From Amoebophrya sp. A120 (Eukaryota; Protista; Dinoflagellata), in NCBI GenBank assembly GCA_905178155.1, contig CAJINV010000006.1, forward strand, positions 2,768,658-2,832,657: DNA of 64,000 bases, read 5' to 3'. A model generated the notes under the pieces. The model worked only from the letters and a program-made list of their open reading frames with translations. It ran no database searches and was not told where the DNA came from. Shown piece after piece: positions 66 to 49,230 of the stretch (within the stretch, counting starts at the first letter, position 1; the number at the start of each line of letters is the position of its first letter). A program made the position numbers and the translations under genes.

Positions 66-3000
66 CTGCTGCTGCCTCCCGGGGGAACTCCACGACCCGG
101 AGCACGAGAATTATTTGAAAAGATCCGCCTATCGAATGCAAATATGTTTGGGTCTGAAAGGATGCAGGGCTTGTCATGCTTATCTGGCATGACTGAAAAG
201 TTTGTGATGCGTGTCCGAGAAGAGATCCTTGTGTTTGTCACGCAAAAACGCAGTTCGTCATGCGGAAAACGCAACACTAAGCCGCGCAAATATTTCTCAT
301 GCTTGGCTGCGCATTGCAGAGAATTCACTACTCACAGCTCGGCATTACAAGTTTCCAGAGCCAGACATATTTGCATGTGATACCGCCGCCGCCATGGCAA
401 AGAATTCGCAGGTCTACATCAACATCGTTCCCGGGAATTTTATGTCGTCAGAAATCCTGAACGCGTGCAGCCACCTGCTCGGCTGTTTAGTCATCCCGCT
501 TTTGTACACGCGGTTGTTTTATGCCTTGCAAATATGTCCTCTGGGTGTGAAAGATTGGGCGAGGTTGTCATGCAAATCGTGCATGACCCGCGATCTCTGT
601 GATGCATGCTCTAGCATCACAGCTTTTGCGAAGGCTTCCTCATGCCTGTCCTGCATGAGAGAAGTGCCCACCACCTCTCCGGCGGGTGGCAACATTCTGA
701 GTGCCTTTTGCTGTTCATGCAACACAGATTTTTGCATAGTCGTGAGTTAGCATCGCAAATCCCATTCTTCCCAGACCCAGAACGATATTTGCATTTGATA
801 AGTTTTCGATCATCAGAGAGTTCGAGAATTTCATGGAAAACAAGATGCCCAGCAGCGTCTTATCCTGTGCAAAAGTATCGTACTCGTACAACTGCAAGTT
901 TAGCATCACAAATCTTGTTTCCGGAAGGAAAATCTGCATTACAAATTTTATTTCTCATGCTGAGGAAATTTGTAATGCATTTATACGAGCACGATACTTT
1001 TACAATGCATATGTCTTTCAGAACTACAATGGCGCGGCCCACAACAATTTTCCTCCTCCACCCCCTTGGCAACAAGATTACTACAACGACTTTCTTGATC
1101 CCGCGTCCCCCGCCGCACAATCTGCCCACAATTTCTCCCTCATGCAGAACCTGGGAACCTTCGCGCTGGGGACGTTTCTTTTCACGGCTTTTATAATGTT
1201 TTTGAACAGTTGCGTTTACCACGCGTTGTTCTACGTGGTGCGAAGCAACCAAGCCATGCAGGTGCTGGACCACAGCGGAATTTATTGCCTAATCGCCGGG
1301 ACTATCAGATGCAAATATGGCTGGGTCTGGAAAGTTGTGATGCTAATATCCGAAAGATACGCAAACGGTATTGCGGAGTCGCGCATGACAAGTTTCTGTG
1401 TACTAGCTACGTCTAGCGTTAAGCGCATGACAAATTGCATTTTTACATAGCAAACAAGTGGCGTTGTAGCGCAACAAGCATGACAGACTTTTTTGCATTG
1501 CCGGCCGAGCATGACAGGCTTGCATTCTTCCAGACCCAGACAAATTTGCAATCCATAGGGACCTATTTTCCGATCATCGTCATTGGCTGCGACAACACGT
1601 ATAATGCAGTTGTGCCGGGGATGTGGTATACTAGTAGGTACTTCGACAGCAGTAGCAGCAGCAGTGCGACCAACGGAAATAATAACAGCTTCACCGGAAC
1701 CAATTCCACACCTTCCCCAACAGCACAGTACGGTCCACTGGTTCTCCTTTTGGTGTACTTGATTCTCACCTTCCTCGGTTTGACCATCTCGATTCAGTGC
1801 CACGCGAAAAAGTGGTACCCGAATTTTGTCGTAGTGATGTACGTCGTCATGGGGTTTCTCGGCGCACCGTACATGCTAACGACGTGCTTTGTCGGGCCGG
1901 CGGAGGAATGTGGGTGGAACAACAATCCGGCGCAAATGTACAACGGGAACTTGTCGAGTTTCAACCTCGTCCCCAGTGACGAAAACGTGAAATCTATGCT
2001 GTGTAAAAACGTCCCCACACCAGAGTCGAGATGGAGATTTTGCAACACAAACCTAGAGCTTTTGGGGGTCACGCATCACAAGTTGCAGTCCGTAGCGTAG
2101 TGCAGGTTCGCAAGGCCAGCTGCATCAAAAATCCATCTGCTCATCCCGGTCACAGCATTACAAATGCCGAAACACGATTGGAAATGCCTTTCATGGGGAA
2201 GCGCATTACAAGTGTTCCTGTCATTGCAAATCTGCATGACAACTCCGGGGTGGGTACGTTTTTACACAGGATAAAATCCCACTACTGGTGGGCGAAGGCG
2301 TTAATCGCGCTCGGCGGGGCGTTCTACCTGTTTATCAAAAGGAAAAATCCCCCCTCCCCATATCAAAAGGAAGTTTCTGCTGCTGGATTTGCGTAGACAA
2401 ATCAGGTTTGTATTGTAGAGAGGCATTGCGGGCAGATCTCCAGGCTAGATAGGGGCTTATGTGTCTAGTTGCTCAGCATGGCAAACGGCTCCCCTTTAGG
2501 CCCAGCAGCATGACAAATCGCCTCCATAATGGGGCGAAAGCTCCTGCCCTCGTCTTCTTGCAAGATGCATATGATTTGTGACCTCAAATCAGCAATACAA
2601 GTTTTCGGAGTCATACCTTTTCGATATGGGGAGGGGGGATTTTTCCTTTCAATACTGTTTGGCGTGTATTTTTTCCTGCAGCGGCAGTACCCCTTCTACC
2701 ACGTGATCTGGCACCTGTTCGTCTATGGCTTGTTCAGCTGTTACAATCTCAAGCGTTACAATAGAATATGGAAATCTGTGATGCAAGAAGTGCATGAGCT
2801 AACATACTGTCACAGAATTGCGCATGACAGGTTCTGGAGTCCTAAGCTGCAGTAGAATCTGCCGAAATTTCTATTGCAGAAAGTGGAACGCTCTGCGAGT
2901 CTGTCATGCTCATCACGCAAGACAAATCCCAGACTCTATTGTAACGTTTTAGATTCTAACGTTTGAGCAGGTCATATCGTCATCTTCGCGTTTTTGGCGC

Positions 3001-7477: not shown

Positions 7478-10400
7478 ATGGCCGCCGGGCTCGACTCCAG
7501 CAAGTACAAAATGACCGTTCCTTCTTTCCTCTCCGACAACGTTCCGCCCATGGGGATTTACGAAACCCTCTACGCCTTCAAGGATTCGTTCGGCGCGTTC
7601 ATGGGCACGTATGACAGTGCGCACGTCCCCCTCGTTCTCATTTCTCATGCAAAATACTAAATCCACGCTTTGCTTCTTGGCACAGGTTTGCATGACAAGT
7701 TCTGGTAGTCCAAAAAGCACTACAGTCCAGTGCAAGTTTGTCATGCAAAACCGGCATTCTTGCTGAAGCTGATGCTTGTACTATTGCCTTTCATGCTATA
7801 CAAATGAGCGGAAGCAGGGGGAGCTGTGCACTGTTATAGCACGGAGGGAACCCACCCCTGGTCCCAGGGCTTTCCGCTGACGACCAAACTGACGGTATCC
7901 TGAGTAAAAACGATCCCACACGACCAGAGTCAAGTTGGGAAACCTGCAAGAAAAATACACAAGCTTTGGCTGTTTCGCATGACAAGTTTGGGCTCGCAAT
8001 GTAAGAATCGCGCTCAGCTAGTGCAGAAGCGTCACAAATCCAGCGCATTATGCTGATTCGAGCATCACAAATTCCAGAACACGACTAGAGAGTGCTTCTC
8101 GTCGGGCTCCGCATGATAAACAGTTGGAGCATGCCGACTTGCATGACAGCTAGGGGGTGGTGACGTTTTTACACAGGATGCATGGGCGACCCGGCTGACC
8201 CGGCGGACGGCCCGGAGTTGCCGTCCTCGGTGGAATATCCATTGCAAATGTATCGATTCTACTCGTAGTTACCTTGCAGAGTTTTACTTATGCCGAAAAT
8301 GATAAAACTGCTTTAGCATCTGAAAAGTCTGCATAACAAACTCCACTATCCTTTTTGAGGATGAACAAAGAAGTTGTAAAATGCAACTTCTACCACCTGT
8401 ATCTCTCTCGAACGAGTGTAGAAGTTGTGGTTGTGCGAAGACACGACTTGTTTTGCAATGCATATGAAAGTGACTTTCGAAGACCGGTTTTACCCGAAGG
8501 CCTGGGGCCACCCAGCGCTGCGGAAAACGATTGCGGACTACTACAACAAGTATTACGTGAACGACCCAAAGTGCAACGAGGGGTTGTCGGATGAGGAGAG
8601 GAAATTGAAGGAAACGTACTTGATATGGAACGAAGAAACTGTGTAGTATCGGGTGTCTTCGGGTGACAGCATGACAAATTTGTTCTGCATGACAAAGAAA
8701 TGCTGTCATGCACAGATAGTACGTGAAAACAAAACACCTTATAAAATAGGACGTCATGGCTGGCTAGCATGACAACTGTAACACTGTTGCATGTTTTGCA
8801 TGACAGACTTACACTTACCCAGTTTTTTTCTTCCATACCTGAACAAGACGCCGATTGATGAGGAGAACATCATGATTTTCGCCGGCGGCAGATATCGAAA
8901 GGAAAAATCCCCCCTCCCCATATCAAAACGGAATTTCTGATGCTGGATTTGTGTACACAAATCAGGTTTGTATTGCAGAGAGGCACTCCGGCCAAATCCC
9001 CAGGCTAGGTAGGGCCGTATGGGTCTAGTTGTTCAGCATGGCAAGTGGGTCACTTTTAGGGCCAACAGCATGGCAAATCGCTTCCCTAGTGGGGCGGAAG
9101 CTTCTGCCCTTGTCTTCTTGCAATACAAATGCGATTTGCGACCTCAAAGCAGCAACGCAAATTTTCAGAAACATACCTTTTCGATATGGGGAGGGGGGAT
9201 TTTTGCTTTTGATAGCAGACCGGGCATCTACACAGTGCTGGCTTTTTTGAAGAAGGATGTGGAAGTCAGGATCAGCAACATGGAGTGGCCCGCGTATCTG
9301 GATATTATGGAGGTATTTATAAGTAGCTTTGATGATGACTTTGTTTGCTTTGCTTGATTAGATGCGTTGTTGACGCATGTTTTTTATGATTTGCAAAACA
9401 GACACAGAGCATGAGAAACTGCACCACAATTGAAATCTCACATGCCACACACCGGTGATCTACTACATCGAAACATCAGGCCACGAACACTTCCTGGACC
9501 GTCGTCCCGTGCAACCTGGAAAACGAATTCCGCCCGACAAACGACCAGTACTACGAAATTAGGAAGACTTTGAACTACAAGAAAAAAATCTTCCCCATCA
9601 TCTCCAACCCCGGAAACCCCACCGGGCACGTCCGCTGCGGTGATGAGTTGATATGCACTACAATTTTTTTTTTTTCCTCGCACGTACAAAATGCATTGCT
9701 ATACAACTTGTCATGCTGATAACGATTGAAGGGGAGTTTTGTCATGCAGAAAAAGCATTTGCTTTTGGTACTTTGGTCGTGCACGGGAAATTGAAACTTT
9801 CTGTGGATAGTTGAAGCATTTGGTCCACACGTTGGCAGAGAAGAACGGCGAGGGTCTTTTGCTAGTATGCATGGCAAATATCATTTCTGCGTCTGGGAGC
9901 TCTAGAAACTTGCGTTGCTGATATTCGCATCGCAGAGCGTCTTAACAAATTTCATGGCATCACAAAAAAAAATCGCCAGTCGTGTTTTACGCATCACATA
10001 TCCTTCCTGTGCTTCAGGTCTCGCAACACAAATCCAGAGGAAATACCAGAGATACAACATATTTGCCCTGCATAACTGGACGAAGCGTACGAAATGTACC
10101 ACAACCCCGCGTATCAAATGCAACTATGCCTGGGTCTGGAAATTTGTGATGCAAAAATGTGCATGATGAAAACACTTCCTTATGCAGAACAGCATGACAA
10201 GTTTGCAGAGCACTTACTCATACGAACTCCGCATGAGAAACTGCGTTTTTGTATGACATGAGAGGCTGCCACTTTTGTTGGTCGTGCAATACAGAACTCA
10301 CAGGAATGCAGCACCAGCATTACAAGTTCCATCTTTCCAGATCCAGACATATTTGCAATGCATACCGCGGTCTCCGGCTTGGCCTACGCCGAGGATTTGG

Positions 10401-12111
10401 AAAACAGCAACCTGTTCTTCACCGGAGCTTGCACCAAGGGGTTGCAGTGTCCCGGGATTCGAATCGGGTGGATGATCGCGTCGAAGAAAAATATATGCAT
10501 TGCAAAAGTGTCGCACATTGACATTTGTCGTGCAGAATTAGGTAGAGGAAAAAGATGTGTCATGCAACAATGCAATTTGATACTAGGACGAGTGCGTGTT
10601 CGATCAACGTCTTTTGCAAAGGATAGAACATCGAAACTCTGTCCAACTTCTCCTCCTTCGGCATGGGCGGCGTCTCCCATCCAAGCCAGCACTACGCGGT
10701 GAAACTGTTCGAACCCGTCCGGGTGGCGCAAGCCAGGAAGGCCGTGCAGAAGCACTACGACTGGCAAAGGAAGCGGTACGGGGAGGCGTTCAAGGAACTG
10801 GGGCTGAAAATCCACACTGGTACTTACTGGACTCAATACAGAGTACAACTTATTTTTTGTGTCTAGTACTTGGTTTGCATGACAGAGGTCGTTTCGTTAT
10901 TAATGCGTAGCTCGTTATTTCGTTTGCTTAGTGAAAATGCGTTGTGAATTACTAGAACGAAAAAAAAAAAGGTAACGGCGGTTTCTACCACTGGCTGGAG
11001 CTTCCGGAGGGCATGTATCAACAGGAAAAATCCCCCCTCCCCATATCAAAACGAAACTTCTGATGCTGGCTTTTCTCGTACACAAATCCGATTTGTGTTG
11101 CAGTAAGGCAGCACAGCCAGATTTTCGGCCTAGGTGGGGGCGTTTGGGTCTAGTTGCTTAGCATTACAAACGGCTGTCCCCTAGGCGCAACAGCATACCA
11201 AACCGCTTCCATAATGGCGCGGCAGCCTCTGCGCTTGTCTTCTTGCAAGACAGACGCGACGCATGGTCTCAAATCAGCAACGCAAATCTTCGGAAACATA
11301 CCTTTTCGATATGGAGGGGAGGGGGGATTTTTCCTTACAATAGCATGGACTGCCGAGAACTGAACAAACGGCTATTCAAGAAGGGCGCCGCGATTCTCGA
11401 GGGGCCGATATCAAGATGAAAAATCCCCTCTCTCTGTATCGAAATATGAAGTTTCTGTTGCTGGATTTGCGTACACAAATAAGTTCTGTCTAGCAGCAGA
11501 GGACTGCAGTGAACTACTCCTCAGCCCGTTTAGGACAGTGAGGGTCTACTTCTAGCTGTCTAGCATGCCAAACGCCTGCCCTGTAGGCCCAACCGCATGA
11601 GAGCAAGTCCCTCGTCCCATAAGAAAGCGGCGCACCCCTCTGCGCTTGTCTCCTTGCAAGACAAAGCTGACTTGTGCTCACAAATCAGCATCACAGGTTT
11701 GGAGGGGGGATTTTTCCTCATGATAGCCGAACTGTGACATGGCCCGGCCGCATTCGAAGGACGAGAGTTACCAGAGCCCGTACCTGCGGTTCTTCCGGTT
11801 CTCTATCCAAGAAAAAAACGTTGTTAGTGTAAATTTGTGATGCGCAACATGCAAGTTGATTGCGTCTGTCATGCTTGGCATGCCTCTGAGAGTCCATTAA
11901 AGGGCGTTTTCCCGTACTATCTGCGCGTGACAGGTTTTTGCTGCCATGCCAGGCAAATTTGTAATGCTGTTCCTCCAAAAAAGTTGCACCTACAATGTTT
12001 TTTTCTTGGATATTCTCCTTCGGGCCGCTGTTGCCGGAAACTTTTGAAGAGGATGTGAAGATCTTTTCGGAAGTCTACAAGCAATACAAGAAAGACATCG
12101 GGATTGCGTAG
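7478..12111 (+). CDS. PLP-dependent aminotransferase class I/II, 12 introners + 2 GT-AG introns
   Basis: Spliced motifs WGHPALRKTIADYY, FAGGRPG, ISNPGNPTG, LLLDEAY, GACTKGLQCPGIRIGW (PLP lysine), GGFYHW, FFRFSFG. ATG 7478, TAG 12109-12111. Confidence 0.92.
7610..7838. mobile_element. Introner family E (TIR TATGACAGTGCACA)
   Basis: DR GCACG. Confidence 0.9.
7896..8179. mobile_element. Introner family C, right end and DR deleted
   Basis: Ends ACACAGGAT with no second GACGG. Confidence 0.75.
8236..8464. mobile_element. Introner, divergent B-like
   Basis: DR TGGAA/TGAAA. Confidence 0.85.
8624..8837. mobile_element. Introner family G (TIR TATSSAAGAAAAAAA-TGTG)
   Basis: DR CTTGA/CCTGA, close copy at 54629. 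Confidence 0.88.
8893..9214. mobile_element. Introner family D
   Basis: DR GCAGA. Confidence 0.92.
9313..9479 (+). other. Canonical GT-AG intron
   Basis: GAG|GTATTT...CATCAG|GCC, frame restored. Confidence 0.85.
9652..9809. mobile_element. Introner, unassigned/degenerate
   Basis: DR GTTGA. Confidence 0.85.
9866..10074. mobile_element. Introner, degenerate A-like
   Basis: DR GCTAG/ACTGG, restores LLLDEAY. Confidence 0.88.
10112..10364. mobile_element. Introner family A
   Basis: DR CCGCG. Confidence 0.9.
10494..10625. mobile_element. Introner, short B-like
   Basis: DR AAATA/GAACA. Confidence 0.82.
10820..10971 (+). other. Canonical GT-AG intron
   Basis: Restores HTGNGGFYHW. Confidence 0.85.
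11016..11342. mobile_element. Introner family D
   Basis: DR GCATG. Confidence 0.9.
11409..11725. mobile_element. Introner family D
   Basis: DR GCCGA. Confidence 0.9.
11804..12012. mobile_element. Introner family G
   Basis: DR TTCTC. Confidence 0.9.
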
Positions 12112-14913: not shown

Positions 14914-17900
14914 ATGTCCTCCCCCGATGTGGAAATGGTTGGCTCGCAGAGCTCGGCGAGTCTGGAGTCCGTGGATAACAAGGAAAAGCCCTACGCAAAC
15001 GGCAAATCCGCCGCGGGGTCCACCGGAGGGACAACGAATAACGTCTTGAGCAATAACTCCACCACGGATCAAATCAATAAACTATCAAGTGTAAAAATGT
15101 CTGGGTCTGGAAGAATGCAACTTGTCATGCTAAATCTGAAACAATCAAGAATCTGTGTTGCATGTAACCAAAAGTCGTCCAGTTTTGACCAAGTCGGGAG
15201 GGGGTTTCTCATGCAGGATAGGCATGAGAGAGGTCGCACAGAATCTGTCATGCTAGGTCCTGCATTCCAGACCTCATGGGTCATGGAAAAGCTGCATGAC
15301 AAGTCGCTCATTCTTCCAGACCCAGACATTTTTACATTTGATATAAACCCTCTCCCGACAATGCTGATAGCGGCGACGATAATCGTCCAGAGAAAAACAA
15401 AGACGATCGCGACAAGGAAAAGTCTTCACGAAAATCGAGGTATCAAATGTAAAAATGTCTGGGTCTGGAAGAATGCATCTTGTCATGCTAAATCTGAAGC
15501 ATGCAAAAATCTGTGTTGCAGGATATACCAAAAGTCGTCCAGTTTTGACCAAGTCGGGAGGCAGGTTCTCATGCAGGATAGGCATGAGAAAGATCGCACA
15601 GAATCTGTCATGCTAGGTCCTGCATTCCAGACCTCATGGGTCATGAAAAAGCTGCATGACAAATCGCGCACTCTTCCAGACCCAGACACTTTTACATTTG
15701 ATACGAGGAAACGGTCCCGCGACCGAGACAGGGACCGAAAAGGTGGACATCACAACCGGAAGAGCCGCTCTAGAGACAGGAAAAAACGGAAGAGTAGGAG
15801 TCGGGATCGGGATAGAAATAAATCGAGGAGGAAGTCGAGAAGTAGAAGACGAGATCGCGATAATAATCGCAGGTCGAAGAACCGCAATAACAAGTCCGGG
15901 GACGGGAACGATATACAGGATCACTACGAGAACGTTTTGAGTTTAAGGGACATACAAGCGGATAGAAGTACCAACGACAGACGAGGCGGGGATAGTCATA
16001 GAGACCACCGGGACAGAAACAGGTCGATGTTTCAGGGGTCGATTTCCGGCGGGTTTTCCCAACACTTAGAGTCCCACGGCTACCCATCGGATAACAAGCA
16101 GAACTCCGCCTTGCGACATCTCCCCAGCCGGGAAAACCGGTACTCCGATGAACACAGAACAACAAACAGGTCGAACGGGCATAATTACGACAGAGACCGG
16201 GATAGAAGCAGGGACGACACGCAACACCGTGGTTCCCGGCATGAGAAACGAGATCGGGACGGGAATGTGATGCCGATCACCTTATGCATTGCAAAAGTAT
16301 CGTACTCGTATTGCAGTCATGCATTACAAATCTTTTTCTTAAGGGAAATCCGCATTACAAATTTTCTTCCTCATGCTGAGGAAATTTGTCATGCATTTAT
16401 ACGAGTACGATACTTTTGCAGTTCATACACCTCTCTCCGGGACAATGTCATGCACAACGCGAACACAAGTCGGTTGAATATCGGGAACATTTTGCAACAA
16501 ACGAAGATGTACCAAATGCAAAAATGTCTTGGTCTGGAAGAGTGCATGTTTGTCATGCTTGTCTGGCATGACTCTTAAAGCTGTCATGCACGTTGCTCAC
16601 GAGCCGCATTTTTCTGTCATGCGGAGACGCAGTTTGTCATGCAGATTAGGCAACACCTACAAGCTCAGAAATTTGTCATGCTGAGCCAGTACTTGTGGCC
16701 TCCTCATGCTACGCCACTCAGCATCACAAGTTTCCGGACCCAGACACTTTTGCATTTGATAAGATGTTGAAGATGGAGCGGGAGCGGTTATCGAAACAGC
16801 AGGTCGACTACATCGAGATGATCGCGTTCAGGAATCTATCCTGAGTAAAAACGTCCCCACACCATGGTCATGATGGGAAGTCTGCAACACAAATCCTCAA
16901 GTTTTGGGAGTTCTGCATGACAAGTTTCCATCTGCAGTGTAGTGCTGGCTAGCAAGGAAAGCCGCATGAGTAAGCCATTTTCTCATCCTGTTTACAGCAT
17001 TCCAAATGCCAAAACACGACTGGAAATGCCTCTCATGGAGATGCGCATTACAAATGTTCCTGACATTGCGCATTTGCATGACAACTCTGGGGTGGGGACG
17101 TTTTTACACAGGATAGAATCCGGAAAACAACCGGAATAAAAACGACCCCACAATCGACAAGCAGGAGTACTACAAGTGCCAGGTCGGGGAGAAGCTCGGC
17201 GATAACGGGGAGTTTGAAGCCGTGGAGCAGTTAGGAACCGGCGTTTATTCCTCAGTGTTCAAGTGTAAGAAGGTCGGAAGAGATAGACACAGAAACAACC
17301 GAGACAACTATCGGGGGAATAACCGGAGATATGATGACTGGGAGGACGATCGAGATTTCGTAGCAGTGAAAATCATCCGGAACGTGCGGGCGATGCAAAA
17401 CCAGGCCATGCGGGATATCCTGAGTAAAAACGTCCCCACCCCAGAGTCAAGATGAGGACTTTGCAACACAAACCTAGAAGTTTTGGGAGTCACGCATGAC
17501 AAGTTCCAGTCCGTCATGTAGTGCAGGTTGGCAAGGATAGCCGCATCATAAATCCATCTGCTTATGCTGTTTCCAGCATCACAAATTCCTAAACACAGTT
17601 GGAAATGCCTATCATGGGGATGCGCGTCACAAATGTTCCTGTCATTGCACATCTGCATGACAACTCTGGGGTGGGGACGTTTTTACCCAGGATACGGGAA
17701 ATTGAGAGGATGATGCGGATGAGCTCGGAGGGACCGCGGGTGGACCGGTTTGGGTCACAGTTTCTGATGTATTTGCACGAAAACAAACACTTTCGCCATC
17801 ACGACCTGCAGGCCATGGTCTTCGACCTGATGCGGCACGACTTGAGGAAAGCCAGCGATGTATCTTGTGTAAAAACGTTCCCACCCCATAGTCAAGGTGG

Positions 17901-19714
17901 TGAATCTGCAACACAAATCTCCAAGTTTTGGGAGTTGTGCATGACAAGCTTCCATCTGCAGTGTAGTGCTGGTTAGCAAGGGAGGCCGCTTGAGAAGCGC
18001 GCTTGTTCATCCTGGTTACAGCATTACAAATTCCAACACACGACCGGACACGCCTCTCATGGAGATGCGCATTACACATGTTGCTGTCATTGCGCACTTG
18101 CATGACAGCCCTGGGATGGAGACGTTTTTACATATGATACGACCGATATCTGAAGGGCCAAAGCGACTCCGCGAAGGGCTTTCCCCTCAGCACCGTGGCG
18201 CTGTATTGATGTTTTGCCATCTATAATTCGAGAAAGAGACTTTTTTTTTGAGAATACTTGTTTTGTTTATCATTGTAATCAAATTTCTTCGAGTTGTATC
18301 ACTTGAAATTTGATATTTCAGCTTGTTCACACGCTACCATGTCCTTTGTCATATTCAAGAAACCCTAGCACGAACAAACCTATTGACTACTAAACTAAAA
18401 ACTACAGGTGGGGTATCCAGATTCTGTATGGGCTTCGCGCCCTGAAGCGACAGGGCATCATCCAAGCGGATTTATCCTGTGCAAAAGTATCGTACTCGTA
18501 TTAATTGCATTTATGCATTACAAATCTAATTCCTAAGGCAAATCCGCATATACAAATTTAATTTGTAATGCTGAGCCAATTTGTATTATACTAGTACGTT
18601 ACTTTTGCAATTCATAGGATTTGAAGCCGGACAACGTTCTCCTCACCCAGGACAACTCAGTAGCCAAAATCGCCGATTTCGGTGCGGCTATGGACGAGGA
18701 GAAGACCATTCGTGACCGCAACATCCAGCCGCGGTACTACCGCGCACCAGAGGTTTTCCTCGGCCAGCGGTACGATTGCGGCATCGACATGTGGAGTTTC
18801 GGGTGCACGCTGTACGAGCTCGCGAAGGGGAAAATCCTGTTCACCGGGGCATCGGATAACAAGATGATCCAGAAGATGATGGATTTGTGCGGTCGGTTCC
18901 CACTGGAAATGGTCTGTCACGCGTACTGTCAGAAGAAAAACAAGGAACTGCAGAAGGAGCGAGAACAGAACGGGCAGTCCTCCGGGTCCGGCTCCGTTAC
19001 ACCGGCTTTCGTTGTCGGCGACTACGCGCACGAGCACTTCGACAAGAAAACCGGGGATTTTCTGCTCCACGACGAAGAAGCGCTGCAGAATATCCTGCGT
19101 GAAAACGTCCCTCACCCGATAGTCAAGTTCGGGGATTTGGCTACACAAATCAACAAGTTTAGGCTGTTGCGCATGACAAACCTGGGATCTACTTCGTAGT
19201 GTCATGGTTTTAAGGTATAATTAGTGCAGCCGCATGACAAATCGACCCTCTCATCCTGATTGCAGCATGAGAAGCTGCAGCCAAACGGCATCGGATAATG
19301 CCCTTCAACATGTTGGGGTCGCGCATGAGAAACATTCGTAGGCATGCCGTTTTGCATTACAACTCTCGGCTGGGGACGTTTTTACACAGGATACAGAACG
19401 AGATGGGTGACAAATCGATGGACCAGCCGACCAAGGTGAAATTATTGTCCGAAAAAGCGACCAAAATGGCCACGGCGCACCTGCGGATGAAGGATTTTGT
19501 GAAATATTTGGAGTTGGACAAGTGCAACGTGAACAAGGACCAGGACCGGAACATTAAGGGCAGTAAGGAACAAGTCTCCGCGTTTTCGGACCTGTTGCAG
19601 AAGTGCCTGCAGCTGGACCCGAAGAAGCGGGTGAACGCTGAGGAGGCCGTGAAACACGAATTTTTCTCCTTGTGTTTGAACGGGGAACGGAGGAAGGAAT
19701 TCATGGGGAAATAA
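14914..19714 (+). CDS. PRPF4B: PRP4-like CMGC Ser/Thr kinase with RS/RD-rich N-terminus, 9 introners + 1 GT-AG intron
   Basis: RS-rich tract, YYKCQVGEKL, LGTGVYSSVFKC, VAVKIIRN, IIQADLKPDNVL, IADFG, RYYRAPEVFLG, IDMWSFGCTLYELAKGKILFTG, LQLDPKKRV. Confidence 0.8.
15083..15343. mobile_element. Introner family A
   Basis: DR TAAAC. Confidence 0.92.
15441..15703. mobile_element. Introner family A
   Basis: DR CGAGG, close copy of 15083 and 43799. Confidence 0.92.
16283..16427. mobile_element. Introner family B
   Basis: DR CACCT. Confidence 0.9.
16510..16761. mobile_element. Introner family A (starts TAC)
   Basis: DR AGATG. Confidence 0.9.
16837..17115. mobile_element. Introner family C
   Basis: DR GAATC. 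Confidence 0.92.
17416..17694. mobile_element. Introner family C
   Basis: DR CGGGA. Confidence 0.92.
17861..18139. mobile_element. Introner family C
   Basis: DR CGATG/CGACC. Confidence 0.88.
18203..18407 (+). other. Canonical GT-AG intron
   Basis: Restores VALWGIQIL. Confidence 0.85.
18473..18616. mobile_element. Introner family B
   Basis: DR GGATT, splits the kinase catalytic loop ADLKPDN. Confidence 0.92.
19091..19393. mobile_element. Introner family C
   Basis: DR CAGAA. Confidence 0.9.
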
Positions 19715-20238
19715 GGTCGTCGCTTTGTGATTGTGTTGTGTTGATTGATAGCTTGTGGCGCACCAGCAAGAAAAATGAACCGCGTTTGATGCCGGCGATC
19801 AAGAAGAGACAAGTAGTTGGATTAAACGAAGAAGAACGGCGATGAAATAAGCGGCATAGGTCGTCGTGCAAAATAAACGAATAACAAGCCAAGCTGTGTT
19901 TCGCAACAGTTTCTTCCTTCTTCTTGAACAAAAAGTGGCAACAAGAACGAGGACTTCCAGCAGCTGGGGAGAGTAGTAAACACTTCCTACCAACATCAAC
20001 ACACGACCATGAAGACGACCATGGACATCAAACTGTCTAGACAAAAATCCAGCGACAACATTAAATTTTGTTTTCACAAAGAAACTTCACCGCATGTGGG
20101 CACTTGCAGAGGATGAGGAGTCCTGCGCGGAAGAAGACTTCCGTCCGAAGACGAGGGGTAATGAATAGTCGCCCAGATGAGCGGAGTTCTTGTTTTCATC
20201 ACACTCCACTGCGTAGTTCGTCGCGCTTCGATGAGTAC

Positions 20239-20321
20239 TCACGCAACACAGATTTTTGCATCATTCAGATTTAGCATGACAAGTTCTAATCTTCCAGACC
20301 CAGACATTTTTACATTTGATA
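20239..20321. mobile_element. Truncated family A introner (right end) in a duplicated segment
   Basis: Right TIR only, followed by TCGGA. Confidence 0.8.
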
Positions 20322-20715
20322 TCGGAACATCTTCACCTCGGTTTCATTTTCAAAAGAACTTTTTTGAAGCATCAAAACTTGAGAGTATTAGTACCTACCA
20401 GGCTAGGGAACAACAACAAAGTGAAGGCTCCTTGGCTCGCTGTTTGTTCATTTTTGTGTTCGTACGAGAACATCAAACGTTGGTCCTGTAGCATTCATAG
20501 TGTGTCGTGTGGCTCGTGCGTCATCGGGTGGGTAACGTACTTGGAAGTAGGCCCGTACTATCAAAAGTGGATAAAAGTAAAAAGTCTCGCCCTTTCGTCG
20601 CTTCTTCTGCTCGATGAAGCAAGGTCGTTTACCTTCGTTTGAAAGCTGTAGGCTTAAGGCCTGTTTGAGGCCGTGGCCGGTGATCTTCGTATAGTCGTGC
20701 TGTCGTCTGGCTGAA

Positions 20716-20875
20716 GTAGTCCATATAATCGTGCAAGATTGCTTGTAGATGTACAAATTCCATCGTGAAGTACAAATTCCAGTAGTAGAAGTACAAATTC
20801 CATCGTGCAAGATTGCTAGTAGTAGTCCCATATAATCGTGAAGTACAGATTCCATCGTGCAAGATTGCTTGTAGG
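20716..20875. repeat. Scrambled short direct repeats
   Basis: Repeated units GAAGTACAAATTCCA, ATCGTGCAAGATTGCT and GTAGTCCATATAATCGTG. Confidence 0.7.
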
Positions 20876-21210
20876 CATTCTGGAACTGCTAGAACTGCTT
20901 GGTCAATACTGTCCGAGCTGCCAGCGGCCTTCTGCGTGCGTCACGACCTTCGTCCTTCGTGCTATTTCTTGCGGCCCATTTTCACAACTGCTGTTCGTCG
21001 TTAGCTCTACATCACCATGCTATCGTGAACTTGTTTGTCCATGTCATCCAGGAAAAGCTTGTTTTTTTTGCCGGGAGCAAAAAATAAGGCGCTGGAAAAA
21101 TAAGCTTCGAGTACTAGTAGTACTTACACAGCACACAGTAGTTTAATAGAGCCTGTCTTTATTTGATTGTTCATACATAAGTCATTGTTCTGACCGAAGA
21201 AGCCCAGAAA

Positions 21211-21631
21211 ATGCCTAAATCCACCACTCTCGCACTGCAACTGCTCGCGGCCCAGCTGGCCGAAGCCGTCGAGTCGTCGAAAACCCACGTTTGGGTGGGG
21301 GGCGAGAAGACCGGAAACGCCGTTCTTTTGCAGGTACAAATTTATGAGCGGAGTTCTTGTTTTCATCACACTCCACTGCGTAGTTCGTCGCGCTTCGATG
21401 AGTACACAAATCATTATCTCTAACGAGGACCGCAGATTTATCAACAACAACTTTTGGATTAAAAATCGGAATAAAAAAACATCAAGCATCTTCACGACCT
21501 TGGAGGCGAAAACGATAAACAAGCCCGAATCTTCCGGATCGGAACATCAGCATCACCTCGGTTTCATTTTCCAAAGAACTTTTTTGAAGCATCAAAACTT
21601 GAGAGTATTGGTTAGTACCCTACCAGGCTAG
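21211..21631 (+). pseudogene. Possible small gene or pseudogene, partly duplicated at 20177-20490
   Basis: ATG with hydrophobic N-terminus (MPKSTTLALQLLAAQLAEA), CAG|GTAC donor near 21334 and open frame downstream. No recognisable domain. Confidence 0.25.
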
Positions 21632-23454
21632 GGGATCTACACGAAGAACAGGTGAAGACTCGTTGGCGCCTCGCCGTTTGTTCATTCTTCTGTTCGTACG
21701 AGAACAACTGTATGGCCCTGTAGCACTTGTAGCGTGTCGTGTGGCGAGAACAACTCGTTGCCACGGGCTTCGTTTCGTCTCTCGAAGATGCAGATCGTCA
21801 AAACCTCTCTTGTTACAGGTTACAGCACATCTAACATTCTAATTTCCTCTCACACGCTCGGGAAGACGTTTTGTTGTCTTCCTGTTCAACAATCGAGAAG
21901 AAGAAGAAGATGTAGAAGAAGTTGCTGCAGGCCCGTGCACCAGTGTGCTGCGTCAGTTTGTTCATTTTGTTTGGTTTTTTGGGCTACAACAACATGAGAA
22001 ACTGAGAGCTTTCGACAACGGTTCAGTAATGATGAAGATTCACCATTTCGCTCTACCGTGAGCGTCTTTGAGCAGCGATTCTCATACAAGTCTCCTTTCC
22101 CCTATTGTTTTCGCGTGTGGTGTTTTTCAAGACAGAAAGAGCAATTTGTCATGCAGATTTGAAAAAGTTCAAAATGTGCGACGGTTTGCCGTTACGTTCT
22201 ACTTCTTCATTTTGTGTTGCACAAACTCGAGATGCTCTATTTCTTGTCGAAAAACCAGATAAATTTGCGCTGCTGGAATGCACGGCCACCGAATTTGTCA
22301 TGCAATACTCCAGAAACCAATCTAATTCGGTAAATAAGATAGTTGATGTGTATATCTAAAAGGACGTCCGTACAAGATCTCGAGCTTCGCACGCCTGGTT
22401 GGTGCTCGTAGCACCCTGTTTGCTCGAGAAAGTAAAGAGCAAAGCCAACAAATCTTCGTTGCACTTAGCACGGTATGCGTGAAGTCGGATCAAGTGCAGT
22501 TCTATTCTGACGACAATATTTGCAAGATGTTCTAATGCTACAAACTCATAACAGGACAACAGAGAATTAAGATAGTACGACAGCAACCGAGTGCAGGAAC
22601 TTGACACATGTGGCACATGTGGGCAGTTTTGCTTCTTGCACCGATCTCCCGTCGTAGTCGTATTCTTCCATACCGATTAGCGCCAAAGATAACTACAGGA
22701 GCCTACGGAACTACAGAAGAAACGGCGAATCAGGGTAGTTTTGGAAAGCAGAGAACGCAACTCGTTGCCACGGGTTTCGTTTCGTCTCTCGAAGATGCAG
22801 ATCGTCAAAACTTACTTCGTGAAATGACCGGGAACGGAAAACAAGTTGAATACTCAAGAAGTACTCACACTTTCATTTTTGAAGTCGTCAGAAAAAAAAC
22901 AGGAACCCCGGCGGTTCTCTTTCATCTGTAATGGCTTGGTATCTCCGATCAATGCACTGGTCTGCTTGCTAGTTCAGCCCCGCTAGTAAGTACTGCGAAA
23001 TCCACAGTACAAAGCAACGTGGGCTGCCGCGGCTGCTTTTCGTGTGAATGAAGTCGACGTTATTTTCTTGATTGCAGTCGTATTATCGTAAATTTGTTGC
23101 GCCCTCGTTACGCTTCGTATTGATTCTTCCCATGCTCGTAGAGGAATTTTGCAACTTCATCGCAACTTCTAAGAACGGCAGGCTCTTTTTTTTTCAGTGT
23201 TGGCGAGCATGCTATGCCACTAGGGTAACAACTAGTGGCTCGGGGGAAGTAGATACATCCGAAAGCGTTCTTGTAAAATAGAGCAGGACCGGCGGTTTCG
23301 GTTCCTGCTGCTAGAGCTGTTGGATCTACTAGACCTACTTCTAGTCGTTCCTGGTGCACCAGCCGCAACTCCTTCATATCGGTAGAAACAAGTTAAAGTT
23401 CAGCAAACCAGCACTAGTTCTTCTTCCAACTACTTCGAAAGACATCACCATCCC

Positions 23455-26400
23455 ATGGCGCTTGCAGGAACGTTTTCCTTGAAAAAATCGGCTCAGTCGC
23501 CCCTCATGAGGATCCTGACCCGGTGTTTCCTCACCTCCGGTTTCATCCTCTTTTTCCCGCTACAACCGGGTGCTGTTTTCGGGAAGGCGGTCGGGAAGGA
23601 ATCAGGCGCTAAGGAAGCGGTATTGCAGACGAAGCGAGCACAACATGCGATGAAGCGGAGAGGGAACATCAAGCTTCAAAAAAATGCCGCTCGCAGAAGT
23701 ACTACCAAATCCGCAGCGCCGACGCACTTTTGGGCGGGGAACGAGCAAAACGCGAAAAATTTGTTTTTGCAAACCGACCGGGCAATTGTACGTATTCCCG
23801 CCGTCGCGGCGCATCAGCAGACTGAAGAAACCAAGCGAATAAATCTTCGCCGCGATGGCAGCGAAACAAGCAGAAGGCCATCAACTACTGCTGCAAGCGC
23901 GTTTGTCGAAAAACACGAACAGCGCCGTCAGCCTAGTCTCGAGGACGCTGGGGATTTTCTGAGTGGAGTGGGAAACCGGGTCCAGGACGTGAAAGAGGGT
24001 TACAACACACTGAAAGGGCATTTGGACACTGTCGGGAACCACCTCAATACCGCGAAGGAGCATGTGCAGAACGCGACAGAAACCGTCCAGCACCACTACA
24101 ACGCGGCGAAGGAAAATTTCCAAAACGCGACAGAGACTGTCCAGCACCACTACAACGCGGCGAAGAAGCATTTCCAAAACGCGACAGAAACCGTCCAGCA
24201 CCCGTACAACGCGGCGAAGGACACAGTCAACGTCGGCTTGCACCACCTGAATAACGCGAAAAACAAACTCGGGGCGCTGCCGTCGGGGGACAGGGAGTAT
24301 AACGTGGGACAACAGTTTCAGCGGTTGGGCCGACACCTCAGGTATCGTGCGGGCTTCCACTGCGGCACGGACGTTATCACGGAGACGCTGAAGGTAGGAT
24401 TCCAGAGGAAGGATAAACTCCTGGTCGACTTTGACAACAGTCCGGAGAGTCCGTTTCGGCAGCTCAGTGAGTTTGTCGACGACTGCAGCCAGCCTCGGCA
24501 CTTCGAAGACGGGTCGGAGCCCACTTGCAACGCGAAGCTATCAACTGCAAAAATGTCTGGGTCTGGAAACTTGTGATGCTGCGTTGGGAATAGTGAATGC
24601 TCTGTAATGCACAGGCAAGCATGAGAAATATCTGCGCTTCTTTTTGTTGCGTTTTTCGCATGACAAACTGCATTTTTGCATGACAGGCAAAAGGCGGGTC
24701 TCTTCTTGGACACGCATCACAAACTTTTTGGTCATGCCAGACAAGCATGACAAACCTCGCAATCTTCCAGACCTCCCAGACACTTTTGCATTTGATAGAC
24801 GCGGTGGGACCAAAACTTCTGTCCGGAACTGCAGGCCGCGTGCGACGTGGAAGAGGAGGCGGAGGAGCACCAGCAGGCTGGAGCGCAGCAGGAGCAGCAG
24901 TATCAGAGGAAAAGATCCCCCCTCCCCATATCAAAACGAAATTTCTGATGCTGGATTTGCGTACACAAATCAAGTCTGTCTTGCAGTAAGGGACTGCAAG
25001 CCCATATCAAGCCTAAGTAGAAGGGTTTTGACGTAGGCGCGCAGCATGGCAAATGTGTACTCTGTAGGCCCCATAGCATCACAAACCGCCTGCATGATGC
25101 GGCGGAGTCGCTGGATTGTCTTTCTTGCAAGACAGACACGATTTCTGACCCCAAATCAGCATCACAAATTTCGAAGCGCCTGCGGAGGCTTGCCTTCCCA
25201 GTGATAATGGACAATGGCAATGTCGGTGCGGTTGTTTTAGCATCACAAATTTCGAAAAGTATACCTTTTCGATATGGGGAGGGGGCATTTTTCCTTGCTA
25301 GAAGCAGATCAAGAAGATTATGCCGAACTGCCAGTATTTGGATGACGATGACAAGGCCCTGCTGCTGGAACTGATGAGCGGTGACGAAGCCGGCTCGGGC
25401 GAGGAACTGACCGTGGCGGACCTGTACGCAGCCTGTGAAAAGAAGGAGAAAACGCCTCTGACCGACTTCACGCTCAGCAACAAGGAATTCCACATGTGCG
25501 GACGAAAGATGTGCGAGACGAAAATCCGCTGCGATACTGATGACCTCCAGCATTTCCAGAATTATCCAGGGCAAATATGTCTGGGCCTGGAAAAGTGGAA
25601 CTTGTAATGCGCGTCTTACATTTATGAAAAATCTGTGTTGCATGAGAAGCAAAAGAGAAGCTTCCTTTGTCATGCAAAAACGCAATTTGTAATGCGTCCT
25701 AGGCATTAGCAGGCGTCTCAAAAACTTGTCATGCTTGGCTGCCATTGGAAGCGCTTCAATCATGCGCGATTCAGCATCACAAGTTTCCAGACCCAGACAT
25801 ATTTGCACTCGATAAGAATTTGTGGGAGCTAATTCTCGGGATGAACATGACGGACAAGCTATTACAATGAAGAATGCCCCCACCCGCGAATTTGCAAAAG
25901 TTTGTCATGCAAAGTTTCCAAGTGAAAGCTTTTGGTCTTGCAGGAAAGGATTGCGAGCCTTTCTGATGCAGAATCTAGGTGCGTAAACTGCCTTGTGCAT
26001 CACAGATCCGGCTGCTGTTGGGCGCCTTCGCAACACAAATTCGACCTATTCAGCATGGAAAATTTGTGATGCTGAGATATGCAAGAAGGGAAATGTTTCT
26101 ATTGGAAATGTTTGCAATACAAATGCTGCCAAGTGTGGGGTGGGAGCATTTTTCATTGTAATACAAGCCGCGAGAATTTTTGTCCGAAGCGACCTTCAAA
26201 GAGCACCGGGGGAACAATGTTAACGGGGAAGTGCGGTCGCCCGAGCAGCAGAAATATGAACTGCAAAAGTATCGTACTGCTACTAGTAGTAATTGCAATA
26301 CTAATTAGCTCAGCATGACAAAGGGAATTTGTCATGCTGTTTTGCCTTGGTATGGAGATTTGTAATGCATGATTGCGATTACTACGAGTACGATACTTTT

Positions 26401-29400
26401 GCACAGGATAAGAAAGCGCTCACTGTGACGGAATTGGAAAACTACTGTGATTCGAACAGCTACTATGACAGTGCACAACTCGACGTCCCCCTTGTTCTCA
26501 TTTCTCATGCAAAACACCAATTCCACACTTTCCCGCCTGTCACTGTTTTGCATGACAAGTGCTGGTAGTAGCCCGAATAACACTACAGTCCAGTGCAAAT
26601 TTGTGATGCAAGACCGGCACTGTTGCTGATGCTTGTGCTGCCCTTCATGATATACAAAGGAGAGGGAGGGGGACGAGTTGTGCACTGTCATAGCTACTTG
26701 GATGTGGTCGACGGTGAAGACGGCACGCACTCTTTCCACGATTACTCGTTCTTGGAGGAAAATGAAAAAGCGTCCAGTGCAGTGGAGGTGTCGGGCAAAG
26801 ATTCCGGCCAGCAGCAGCAGGCTGGAGCGCAGCAGGAGCAGCAGACCAAGAAGATTATGCCGCACTGCCAGTACTTGGACGACGATGACAGGGCCCTGCT
26901 GGCGGAACTGATGATATGGAAAGAATAAAAGTGTTTACAGTTACACATTGTGTTCAAGGCCAAGCAATTATGCAGACAAGCTCTGTCAACATGCCGGATA
27001 TTATGCATAGGAACCTCGTTGTTATTCATACGTACTTTCCCTACTTATGATATCAGCATTGCAAGTTTTCTCTATCATACAGAGAAAAATTGTGTTGCTG
27101 AATTGACAACAAGTGTTGACTAACCGCAAACACTTTTTTTCTATGTTGGATAGATGAGCAGTGACGAGGCCGGCTCGGGCGAGGAACTGACCGTGGCGGA
27201 CCTGTACGCAGCCTGTGCAAAGGAGGCAAGCATGCGCTGGGCTCTGACCTCGAGTGACCCACGGGACTATCAAAATGAAAAATCCCCCCTCCCCATATCA
27301 AAAGGAAATTTCTGATGCTGGATTTGCGTACACAAATTACATTTGTCTTGCAGGAAAGCACTGCACGCAGACAGCAAGCCTAAGGGGGGGCCTCTTGGTG
27401 TAGGGGCCTAGCATGGCAGACGTCTGCCCTGTAGCCTTGCAGCATTACAAACCGCCTCCATATCGCGGCGGACTCTCTGGATTTGCCTTCTGGCAAGACA
27501 GACAGGATTTGTGGCCACAAATCTGCATTACAAATTTTCGGAAGGACATGTTTTCAATATGGGGAGGGGGGATTTTTCTTTGCAATAGGGACGAGAGTGA
27601 CTTCACGCTCACCGACGAGGAATTCTACTTTTGCGGGCGAAAGCTCTGTATCAAATGCAAAAATGTCTGGGTCTGGAAGAATGTAGACTTGTCATGCAGA
27701 TTTTCCATGACCCATGAGGTCTGGAATGCGGGACTTAGCATGACAGACTCTGCGAGGTCTCTGCCATGCCTATTCTGCATGAGAAACTCCGGCCCAACTT
27801 GGTCAAAAGTGGACAGCTTTATGGCACTCATGCAACACAGATTTTTGCATGCTTCAGATTTACCATGACAAGTTGCAATCTTCCAGACCCAGACACTTTT
27901 GCAATTCATACTCTGCGAGACGAAAATCCACTGCGCGAAGTACCCGCTTTTTCAGAATTTGTGGAAGCTAATTCTGGGGAAGAACAAAATGGATCCGTTC
28001 AAAACCAATTATGTGGCCGAAACGACATTCAAGCAGCACCTGGCGAACAAAAATGCCGAGCACGGAGCATGGGCGAACGTAAAAGATGAAGATCTCGCAA
28101 GTTATCATGCAAACGGTGGAATCAACTCAGTTTGGTACCGTGGAAAAGAACTGTACCTGCGGAATATTAAAGTGAAAAATGCCCCCACCCCCAAAGTCGC
28201 AAAAACTTGTGATGCAAAGTTTCCAAATGAAAACTTTTTGTCATGCATGAAAGAAGTATGAATCTTTCTGATGCAGAGCCTAGGCGTGTATCGCATCGCT
28301 TGCATGACAAGCGCCACTCTTGCTGGGGTCTTTTGCAATACAAATTTTTGCTATTCACGATTGGAAATCTGTGATGCTGATAGATGCAAGGGGGCGAGTG
28401 TTTCATTTGGAAAGGTTTGCAATACAAATGCTCCCAAGTTCGGGGGTGGGGGCATTTTTCATTTTGATACGGAACAATGTCACCGGATTTTCGCCTCCGT
28501 ATGCCAGAGAAAAAATCAAAATTTGGTACCGTGCAGTACAATGTCCTCGATATTAGGTGACACAAGAAAACTGCCGATATTTTTGAGATGAAATTTTGCA
28601 GTGCAGCAGACTTAGTACTCACACGCTTAGTACAAGAGCCCTTCGGCTAGTAGAATCCGGTCTTGTGTTGACTACCTTCCACAACCACGCTAGATCTGGT
28701 TATAATTGGATATCTTGAGGAGACGTAGAAGATCGTGCACAGGCGTTCTTGGTCCAGGCTTGGAATTATGCAACAATTAGATGTCAACATGCGTTTTATG
28801 TACTTAGTACCCGGTCCATTTTCTGCATTTTTCCTTATTTGTCGCATAATGAGCAGCAGAAAACGAAGCTGACCTTGACCGAGTTGGAGGACTACTGTGA
28901 AACGAAGGATTATGGGAGTGTCAGGATTGAAATCGTCACAGTTGAAAGAATTTGTCATGCATAAAATGCAGCCCACAAAGTGCCTGCCTTGCAGAATAGG
29001 CAAGTGAGGCAGATTGTAAGCCTGTTGAGGGACCTCCTGTGAAGGCCGTCGCCTGAGGAGATCTCCCGGTCGTAACGTGGGGAGAAGCAGGCCGCATGCT
29101 TATCAGGGCAAGCGGTTAGTAGATCTGGTAGGTTGAAAGAGTGGCCCCAGTGAATGAGGGCCGCCGCCTCTCATGATGTCACCTAGTAGACCATATATAC
29201 GCGCTGGCCTTGTTGTTCTGCGGAGAGCTAGCAGCAAGCAGCTCCCTGGCCCATGCGCTTGCGCTGCTGCGCAGGTCCGCAACAAAAAGGCACGCCGCCG
29301 CTGTGCTGTTTGTTGCCTGCCGCTCGGGTGCCGCAGCTGCACCTCGCGCGTCCGCGGGACGCGACCGGGCAGCAAGCCGAGTGGCACCGCCGACGAGCGC

Positions 29401-47900: not shown

Positions 47901-48577
47901 TCGCGGTGGCTTTCTTCGAATTTGGGCAGCCGGCATTGCTGTACTTGGTGCCCGCGGTCGTGGGGGCGAGCGTTTACCAGCTGTGGAATAAAGTGGGGGG
48001 AGGAGAGCGACAACGACGAGGTCAAGGACAAGTACTACAAGCTGTAATGCAAGACACGGAACGCCAGGATCAGGAATTGTCGTTCAAATCCGTTTGGGAA
48101 GGTTCTCTGCTGCAGCCGGAAGAGGAGGAAGACGAGGAAGAAATTGATGCAGAAGTAGAAACCAAAGAACAAAACTCCATCTCTGTAGACGACGACAGCC
48201 AAACCCATAGCCGTGAGTATAGTCAGGAGGGCGACCAAGGCGGCCAGCAATTTCGCAGTTACGCGGCGACACCGGGAGGGACTTCTACTACGACGCGCGT
48301 CATCGGGAACACTATTAAAGGGTCTCCACCGCCCACTCCTTCCGCCCGATCGCCAAAGCGGAAGAACAAATCGATAAAGAAGCGGAAAAATGCGGCATAT
48401 CCGCAACAGAAACAGCAAAACTACCTCCGCATCAGTCCGGAGAAGGTGAACGACGGATTTTTGAAAGAAGAATTTCAGTCGCAGGTTGATCTGTACCCAG
48501 CGGCCGCGGAGGAGAACGAGCTACATGCCTTACCTCAGAGCAGACTGAAGGATGAGCAGCCTGCTGTGTGTTTGTGA
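41942..48577 (+). CDS. Signal peptide peptidase-like GxGD intramembrane aspartyl protease (A22B), 9 introners
   Basis: FFDIFWVFGS...SVMLEVA, PLPML, MLGLGDIALPG and GQPALLYLVP motifs with multiple TM segments. Confidence 0.9.
43799..44062. mobile_element. Introner family A
   Basis: DR TCAGC. Confidence 0.92.
44156..44370. mobile_element. Introner family G
   Basis: DR GATCG. Confidence 0.9.
44568..44829. mobile_element. Introner family A with extended 14-bp flank duplication
   Basis: CACCCCATCCGCGT at 44554-44567 and 44821-44834. Confidence 0.82.
44883..45141. mobile_element. Introner family A
   Basis: DR CTTCG. Confidence 0.9.
45209..45417. mobile_element. Introner family G
   Basis: DR ACGAC. 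Confidence 0.9.
45526..45804. mobile_element. Introner family C (ends ATC)
   Basis: DR CAGTC/CAGGC. Confidence 0.85.
45859..46110. mobile_element. Introner family A (reverse orientation of the 25563 type)
   Basis: DR CTGAA/CTCAA. Confidence 0.9.
46827..47087. mobile_element. Introner family A
   Basis: DR GATAC. Confidence 0.9.
47151..47390. mobile_element. Introner family A
   Basis: DR GCTTC/GTTTC. Confidence 0.9.
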
Positions 48578-49230
48578 GCTGGAACTTCTAGTAGTACTTC
48601 CACTGGTCGTAATAAAGTATCCGTTTGGAGAAACGTATAATGAAACTCAGTTTCTGTCACTGGCGATCTCGCGGCACATGTTGCGACGTGATGTTGATGA
48701 CTATGACAATTTCATCTAAAAGCCTAGTGCTGCGGGACCATGTGCTGTGTGTGTGTGTGATAGCTGCAAATTATCGATGAAAATGAAGGAAAGAAGTAAA
48801 AGGCAACCACCTGGACTTTCTTTTACTGCTGTGTTCCACCGAATGAAGCATTATCCACGATGCCAGTGTAGTCGATCTTGTCTCCACCAGCACTGCTGTT
48901 CGAAAGCTGGGCAGTTGCTTTCATTCTGCTTTTCGCTTGTTGCCCGATTTTCACCCGCAGCGACGCATCTCATGAAAACGAAGACCATGAGAAGTATTTT
49001 TAAAAGAAGGAATCTACTCTAATTCTATCTGTACCGCTTGAGAAGTGGTTCGCGTTTTCTGTCAAGGATCGAAATTCTTCAACATCATGACTTCCCCCAC
49101 AGAGCTGTCCTTTAGCAATATTACTTCTTTTTGAAGAGCAGACTACTCAAAGGAATAAATCTTCACCGGAGCTGTTGTACAACACAGATTTCTACTCGAA
49201 GCAAAAAGAAGCTTCGCCAGGCAAGAAATC

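Follow-up and report, generated by a model that had tools for sequence, protein, structure and literature searches.

Introner-like elements that become introns in either orientation were reportedly described from Aureococcus by Huff and colleagues in 2016. In Polarella glacialis, either-orientation elements of this kind come with target duplications and some orientation bias, and Aureococcus anophagefferens is cited there as a like case (10.1101/2020.10.14.339549). Closest of all are the introners of the dinoflagellate Amoebophrya sp. A120, which form many families with inverted repeats (TAT, 7 nt, AAA) and short direct repeats of 3-5 nt; non-canonical introns with RNA support are reported, a hairpin was proposed, and the position of the splice sites with respect to it was called variable (Farhat et al., 2021; PMC7789003). 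In the passages and supplement legends consulted, orientation refers to the genes only. No cognate transposase was found in A120 by the same authors, and introners have since been attributed to diverse transposons with terminal inverted repeats (Gozashti, 2025). The nonconventional introns of euglenids, for their part, follow a tested code with a palindromic triplet near both ends and terminal pairing (Nomura et al., 2025; PMC12501133). Here we analyze a 64,000-nt stretch of A120 contig CAJINV010000006.1 (positions 2,768,658 to 2,832,657, forward strand; hereafter the window), in which introners of one family are removed from mRNA, together with 5 nt of flanking sequence, in both orientations.

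The window contains 79 catalogued elements, which occupy 21,253 of its 64,000 bases. Nearly all start with TAT and finish with ATA, possess inverted ends and sit between 5-nt direct repeats; the repeats agree at 5/5 letters in 54 elements and at 4/5 in 16, counts that carry the preference of the element scan for 5-nt direct repeats. The automatic scan returned no element from 30 kb of shuffled sequence, and searches of the window against Rfam and viral_contigs gave no matches. Position tables of the elements fit the published motif of TAT, 7 variable nt and AAA as an inverted repeat, and we conclude that these are the introner elements already described from A120. They are also short, multi-copy and bounded by terminal inverted repeats, as are miniature inverted-repeat transposable elements (MITEs).

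A wider sample was taken from 140 loci of one related assembly (L001-L140), fetched by one end motif and amounting to 842 kb including overlaps. Window and loci together gave 573 distinct elements, of which 268 were stranded by their own open reading frame (ORF) and 417 after propagation within loci; 156 of the 573 were excluded for want of a strand call, and 149 of the 417 used carry a strand propagated from their locus. Both orientations are present in all 11 families with at least six copies, and the largest, family 0, is split 83:67. Two clusters among the 17 families tested are skewed: one within family 0 (29:12, p = 0.012), and a 322-nt family that is one-sided in the window (9/9) and stands at 8:29 overall (p = 0.0008).

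One of the loci, L028, is orthologous to 59.9-62.3 kb of the window. Four window elements are absent there, three L028 elements are absent here and one is common to both; every empty site consists of a single 5-mer. Because the empty sites are reciprocal and hold one 5-mer, the 5-nt repeat is a target duplication. Gain is the simpler reading of these differences, although at any single site loss may have occurred instead.

An earlier note on this sequence had claimed that the same element works as an intron in either orientation, citing six pairs of elements (named here by their first positions) as reverse complements: 15441 and 27649, 24539 and 130, 45859 and 25563, 51285 and 56637, 61917 and 25860, and 60419 and 2724. 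Its element coordinates are exact. With 30 nt trimmed from each end, all six pairs align in reverse only, with scores of 243, 221, 284, 185, 290 and 160, respectively, against forward scores of 18-31 and a maximum of 24 in 400 shuffles. Counting the flanks, 15441-15703 and the reverse complement of 27649-27910 share 90% mean column identity.

RNA data were compared over 14600-29000 and 43700-51700; the cited elements at 130, 2724, 56637, 60419 and 61917 lie outside both regions. The data sets were raw reads (X7), contigs of one sample (X1 and X4) and a DNA-like run (X5); raw reads amounted to 6 in X8 on 14600-29000 and to 0 in X7 and X9 on 43700-51700. Over 14600-29000, the 15 joints listed out of 38 comprise 13 element joints, one canonical intron and one repeat artefact, and all 13 listed element joints skip exactly the element length plus 5 nt (L+5). 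At 15441 the joint leaves out 268 nt, as seen in 354 X7 reads and in X1 and X4 contigs; at 27649 it leaves out 267 nt in the X1 and X4 contigs, which derive from one sample. No joint for 25563 or 25860 is among the 15 of 38 listed. Over 43700-51700, pieces of X1 contigs match the removal of 12 further elements to the base over 5 gaps, four of which are sums of 2-4 elements; removal of 45859 and 51285 is deduced from this contig arithmetic. Family 0 is therefore removed from RNA in six copies each way: 15083, 15441, 16510, 46827, 50354 and 50952 in one orientation, and 27649, 44568, 44883, 45859, 47151 and 49314 in the other. Copies of both orientations are missing from one contig within a single 1475-codon ORF, where 46827 runs one way and 44568, 44883, 45859 and 47151 the other, and 49314 is opposed to 50354 and 50952 within another ORF. 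This cDNA comparison, with L+5 removed each way, upholds for family 0 the claim that an element works as an intron in either orientation.

All 12 cited elements lie within + strand ORFs of 413-1475 codons once the element and one repeat are removed. The + strand is backed by Pfam matches on + exons of two host genes (kinase and signal-peptide-peptidase domains), and annotated A120 protein P0001, matched by an exon translation with 98% identity along the whole translation, confirms it for a third. Independent support comes from an adapter that precedes 14995 and that we take to be of the template-switch type. For the gene holding 27649, the + strand is supported by the ORF (843 codons on + against 200 on -) and by the register at 28500 described below. 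The statement that all elements keep the frame holds if one 5-nt repeat is cut out along with the element and fails for element length alone, the lengths modulo 3 being distributed 29/27/23 among the 79. Stops occur in all three + frames of 10 of the 12 cited elements, and L+5 removal gives the longest + ORF for 11 of the 12 (130 is not discriminated) and for 64/79 overall.

A perfect direct repeat conceals the exact junction. The two repeat copies of 17861 disagree at positions 4 and 5, and its joint from 17859 to 18144, present in 277 X7 reads and in contigs, cannot slide; this intron begins 1 nt before TAT and stops 4 nt after ATA. The junctions of 28500 and 45526 are compatible with -1/+4 or 0/+5. 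RNA and contigs set the cut behind the third repeat letter at 45859 and 24539 and behind the second at 47151; for 7896 and 8236 the annotated protein indicates a cut behind the third. The mirror register fits 0/8 informative junctions. Element 28500 was discovered through its RNA joint (28498 to 28853) and not by the motif scan; 5/20 of its end pairs form in the predicted fold, and TAT and ATA are retained in place. The earlier note had made the two direct repeats, brought together by the stem, a working part of excision, a role that is not supported: with 1/5 repeat letters left, 28500 is still cut in the same register, and the direct repeat thus makes excision scarless and does not define it. 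The internal repeat of the encoded protein favors a register at 28500 that differs from that of the RNA, and homology is accordingly unreliable at single junctions. We infer one register for all copies, with the intron as N-TAY...ATN-NNNN. Since the offsets of 1 and 4 add up to the length of the duplication, the pre-insertion sequence would be restored at any site.

The earlier note further held that no oriented donor, branch point or acceptor is needed. This stands for GT, AG and an interior branch motif. G is not enriched at the first intron base (65/215 versus 29% in the flank), nor AG at the intron end (17/215 versus 16.5 expected), and selection is rejected for both; the five target positions are without base bias (p 0.22-0.84). 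A GY..AG reading is possible for 1/79 window elements, and that one is 15441 itself, a caveat on the cited example. Across the 417 oriented elements, neither YTRAY/CTRAY motifs nor T and C are more frequent in the sense direction, and interior composition is without polarity. A conventional branch and acceptor for each orientation, which the note had set against its own model, were looked for, and no such enrichment was found in the sense direction.

The denial of any oriented signal is not supported, as the terminal triplets are polar. Among the 417 oriented elements, the third base is altered at the 5' end in 15 and at the mirror position in 3 (p = 0.0075), and the last A is altered at the 3' end in 8 versus the first T in 1 (p = 0.039). 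Most variant copies have TAT...ATA nearest relatives and therefore represent independent changes, bar one sub-lineage of three. In family 0, the pattern at a given physical end reverses with transcript direction (Fisher p = 0.015). The commoner variant, TAC, creates a C.A mismatch and the rarer mirror variant a U.G pair, the opposite of what is expected if the stem acts alone. Intron positions +2 to +4 read TAT in 400 and TAC in 14 of the 417 elements. Canonical donors predicted by frame and codon score alone, a procedure that does not use those positions, read GTAY in 20/39 (background 9%) and in 20/26 of the GTA donors (GTAT 14, GTAC 6, GTAA 5, GTAG 1), as do 5/5 canonical introns of the window that RNA or protein data support; TAC, the variant tolerated at the 5' end, corresponds to the second commonest canonical form, GTAC. 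An inverted repeat presents the same 5' and 3' ends either way, and reversibility therefore cannot exclude signals within it. We think it probable that the inverted ends contain a brief polar signal that reads alike in both directions. These elements insert with a 5-nt duplication, and GT, AG and an intact direct repeat are unnecessary for their removal.

Measured against U2-type introns, the elements lack the GT/GC donor with AG acceptor as well as an oriented branch motif and pyrimidine tract, and share donor positions +2 to +4 with the canonical introns of the host. They resemble those of Polarella and Aureococcus as transposons with target duplications that form introns either way; the latter bring along or acquire GT/GC/GA and AG-type sites, which ties them to particular targets (GHNN, AGGH and others), whereas here near-canonical sites are absent (1/79 GY..AG) and the target has no base bias (10.1101/2020.10.14.339549). 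With euglenid introns they have in common fixed unequal spacers, frequent direct repeats and a suspected MITE origin (PMC12501133; PMC11282704). They differ from them in the triplet (TAT/ATA, not CAG/CTG), in the spacers (1 and 4, not 3 and 5-6), in the absence of a purine preference after the 3' cut, and in belonging to an unrelated lineage. The introns of Fritillaria borealis are likewise MITE-derived, with inverted repeats and target duplications, and are removed by an adapted spliceosome; their prevalent ends are AG-AC/AG-AT with a preferred exonic TAC, whereas both terminal dinucleotides are largely free here (PMC11282704). Organism and elements are the same as in Farhat et al. (2021; PMC7789003). 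What is added, relative to the text of that paper, is reversibility, the proposed fixed -1/+4 register, the dispensable repeat, the polar end triplets, the likeness to GTAY donors and the reciprocal empty sites. In the openly readable text of the literature, neither reversibility nor a fixed register was found to be reported for Amoebophrya; figures of Farhat et al. (2021; Fig. 3, S19-S25) may show one or the other.

The elements are copies of short inverted-repeat transposons with 5-nt target duplications, removed in both orientations by cuts that probably always fall one base ahead of the 5' TAY and four bases beyond the 3' ATA. Of the mechanisms considered, the most likely is that a modified spliceosome of the host reads short signals within the mirrored ends: the 5' arm would serve as an N-UAY donor whose first base may be any letter, those of canonical introns here being G-TAY, the paired ends would align and bring together the splice sites, and the 3' cut would be measured from AUA rather than located by AG. 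The cis code itself we regard as likely; its reading by the host spliceosome in this manner seems to us evenly poised. In A120, 83/89 spliceosomal proteins and the U2, U4, U5 and U6 RNAs were found, and U1 was not (Farhat et al., 2021; PMC7789003). The complete proposal, a second splicing code N-UAY...AUN-NNNN supplied by paired transposon ends, scarless both ways, parallel to that of Euglena and served by a spliceosome in which U1 has not been found, is tentative and falls somewhat short of probable.

The main rival keeps the same cis code and assigns it to a separate, non-spliceosomal nuclease and ligase acting on paired ends at fixed offsets, a system of the sort suspected for the nonconventional introns of euglenids. 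The palindromic triplet, the fixed unequal spacing and the pairing recall the Euglena code N3CDG...CH'GN5-6|R, whose introns leave as circles (review PMC11282704); G+1, AG and branch context are all without support in these introners, and the failure to find U1 in A120 would agree with such a system (PMC7789003). However, the tolerated TAC is the very form used by canonical donors, the rest of the spliceosome is present in A120 (PMC7789003), and the first exon base has no purine preference (191/331 versus 55% in the flank). We consider a separate system unlikely, if still to be reckoned with.

In the model of the earlier note, the symmetric stem alone would be sufficient, without any base-specific signal. 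Folding of the pre-mRNAs does predict a terminal stem in both orientations (z -9.0 and -8.3), as is expected of any inverted repeat, and at least 10 of the first 20 end positions are predicted to pair in 68/78 elements; the interior is unpolarized and every tested family is reversible. On the transcribed strand, though, G.U mismatches do not exceed A.C mismatches (204 versus 206 in the strict set, 325 versus 328 with propagated strands), which gives no sign of selection on RNA pairing in a comparison blunted by inherited mismatches, and predicted sense and antisense folds are alike (p 0.27-0.98). Together with the splicing of 28500 on so few predicted pairs, the polar end triplets and the dispensable direct repeat, this makes a stem-only mechanism improbable.

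Much less probable again is that the two orientations each rely on a separate set of donor, branch and acceptor, conventional or cryptic, perhaps with a mirrored cut within the perfect repeat. A mirrored register may yet occur within one family, the two skewed clusters would suit such a model, and 15441 does read GT..AG. Against this, GY..AG is readable in one element of the 79, neither a branch motif nor a pyrimidine bias is present, and the mirror register is excluded at 8/8 informative junctions, which represent about four independent family-orientation classes. That the joints are DNA alleles or strains without the insertions is scarcely credible: an empty site is identical to a perfect splice product, X7 and the window differ at 2 exon letters, four window elements are absent from L028 and X5 joints are swamped by repeat artefacts (15 of 235 joints listed), but X1 and X4 have only the window's letter at both of those positions and are likewise without the canonical introns, X5 pieces that cross exon-element borders at depth 40-46, free of differing letters, argue against it, and with stops in all frames of most elements 79 unspliced copies would ruin nearly every gene.

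Several points weigh against the favored explanation, removal at one register through signals read by the host spliceosome. Raw reads back one orientation of family 0 only, the other being seen in contigs of one sample, and those contigs are called RNA by a guess from the absence of canonical introns. The exact register depends on a single junction (17861), and its constancy across orientations is inferred because the informative copies of each family are all in one orientation. Codon likelihood at repeat mismatches does not discriminate between registers (4/9 and 11/19), and ortholog searches for two loci with informative copies returned no match. The polarity counts are small and chosen from 30 positions, and three variant copies form one sub-lineage; in the strict set of 268, the third-base test gives 7:2 (p = 0.18) and the first-base test 7:0 (p = 0.016), the latter alone being significant. 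The 39 canonical donors are predictions, at least one of them a missed introner, and since intron positions +5 and +6 vary, the donor likeness covers three bases. An A at -7 as a U2-type branch point found no support, its YTRAY context occurring at 114 sense versus 127 mirror ends of 417; 3 copies, for which RNA data are lacking, have G at -7.

Table 1. Introners and host genes of the window discussed in the text.
Feature	Position	Strand	Remarks
Family 0 introner, orientation 1	15441..15703	+	TAT...ATA; repeat CGAGG on both sides; inferred intron 15440-15707
Family 0 introner, opposite orientation	27649..27910	+	Flanked by CTCTG; predicted intron 27648-27914 with ends GT..CT
Family 0 copy, reverse of 24539	130..382	+	ORF basis only
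Family 0 copy	24539..24797	+	Repeat GAAGC/GACGC; X1 piece stops at 24536
Family 0 copy, reverse of 45859	25563..25814	+	ORF basis only
Copy of 310-nt family, reverse of 61917	25860..26163	+	ORF basis only
Reverse of 51285; 5' end TAC	56637..56944	+	ORF basis only
Reverse of 60419	2724..2976	+	ORF basis only
Introner	60419..60644	+	No counterpart in orthologous L028, where one 5-mer copy stands
Introner	61917..62228	+	No counterpart in L028 (one 5-mer copy)
Introner	17861..18139	+	Imperfect repeat CGATG/CGACC pins the cut; intron 17860-18143
Old introner	28500..28848	+	Repeat down to 1/5 letters; stem largely gone; cut -1/+4 or 0/+5
Canonical intron GTATTG...TACAG, for comparison	18203..18407	+	205-nt gap implied by contig pieces
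Aminotransferase gene, 12 introners	7610..12012	+	P0001 fits L+5 removal at 12/12 and none of the other lengths tried
Seven introners in one 1475-codon ORF (signal peptide peptidase family)	44568..47390	+	All absent from one cDNA contig
Five introners in one 527-codon ORF	49314..51592	+	Contig pieces and exact arithmetic; includes 51285

Within the window, 70/79 elements lie inside + ORFs of at least 200 codons, which make up 59% of the spliced sequence and suggest a preference for exons. Across window and loci, mismatches between repeat copies are synonymous in 29/57 cases versus 23% for random changes, and junction phase is skewed to 0 (118/268). Some elements are themselves interrupted. Introner 28911-30141 contains an insert of about 900 nt with a 15-nt duplication at its borders and a TAA run at its end, resembling a truncated non-LTR retroelement; excision of all 1231 nt together with the neighbor 30150-30422 would, in translation, restore an internal protein repeat. 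Introner 24901-25302 ends in AGA in place of ATA and has an insert of about 80 nt with an 18-nt duplication at its borders.

The kinase gene (14827-19714) has an RS-rich N-terminus and 9 introners; we presume it to resemble the splicing kinase PRP4, and Pfam confirms the protein kinase domain only. A solitary 3' half-element (20237-20321) lies in the transcribed tail of this kinase gene, where an X4 piece enters it up to 20266, with no joint there among the joints listed. The region 23386-30559 is one 843-codon ORF with 14 introners and internal repeats; X1 and X4 contigs span it and X7 is nearly without reads there, yet covers the kinase gene deeply. Aligned with two prokaryote-type metagenome proteins, the aminotransferase (7412-12111) shows 68-69% identity; a close match is named archaeal.

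We conclude that these introners belong to a known class of element, with a property apparently unreported in Amoebophrya and a testable splicing rule. In the description of the A120 genome (Farhat et al., 2021; PMC7789003), the way in which the organism splices its non-canonical introns, tens of thousands in number, is left as an open question. If the proposed code is true, a single register would reduce the diversity of splice dinucleotides to one rule, that of random target letters at fixed offsets; gene models would be corrected, and exact mutations would be available to test it. The ability of a transposon to fill exons with little harm to its host would likewise be accounted for, and the code would provide a lineage-independent parallel to that of Euglena.

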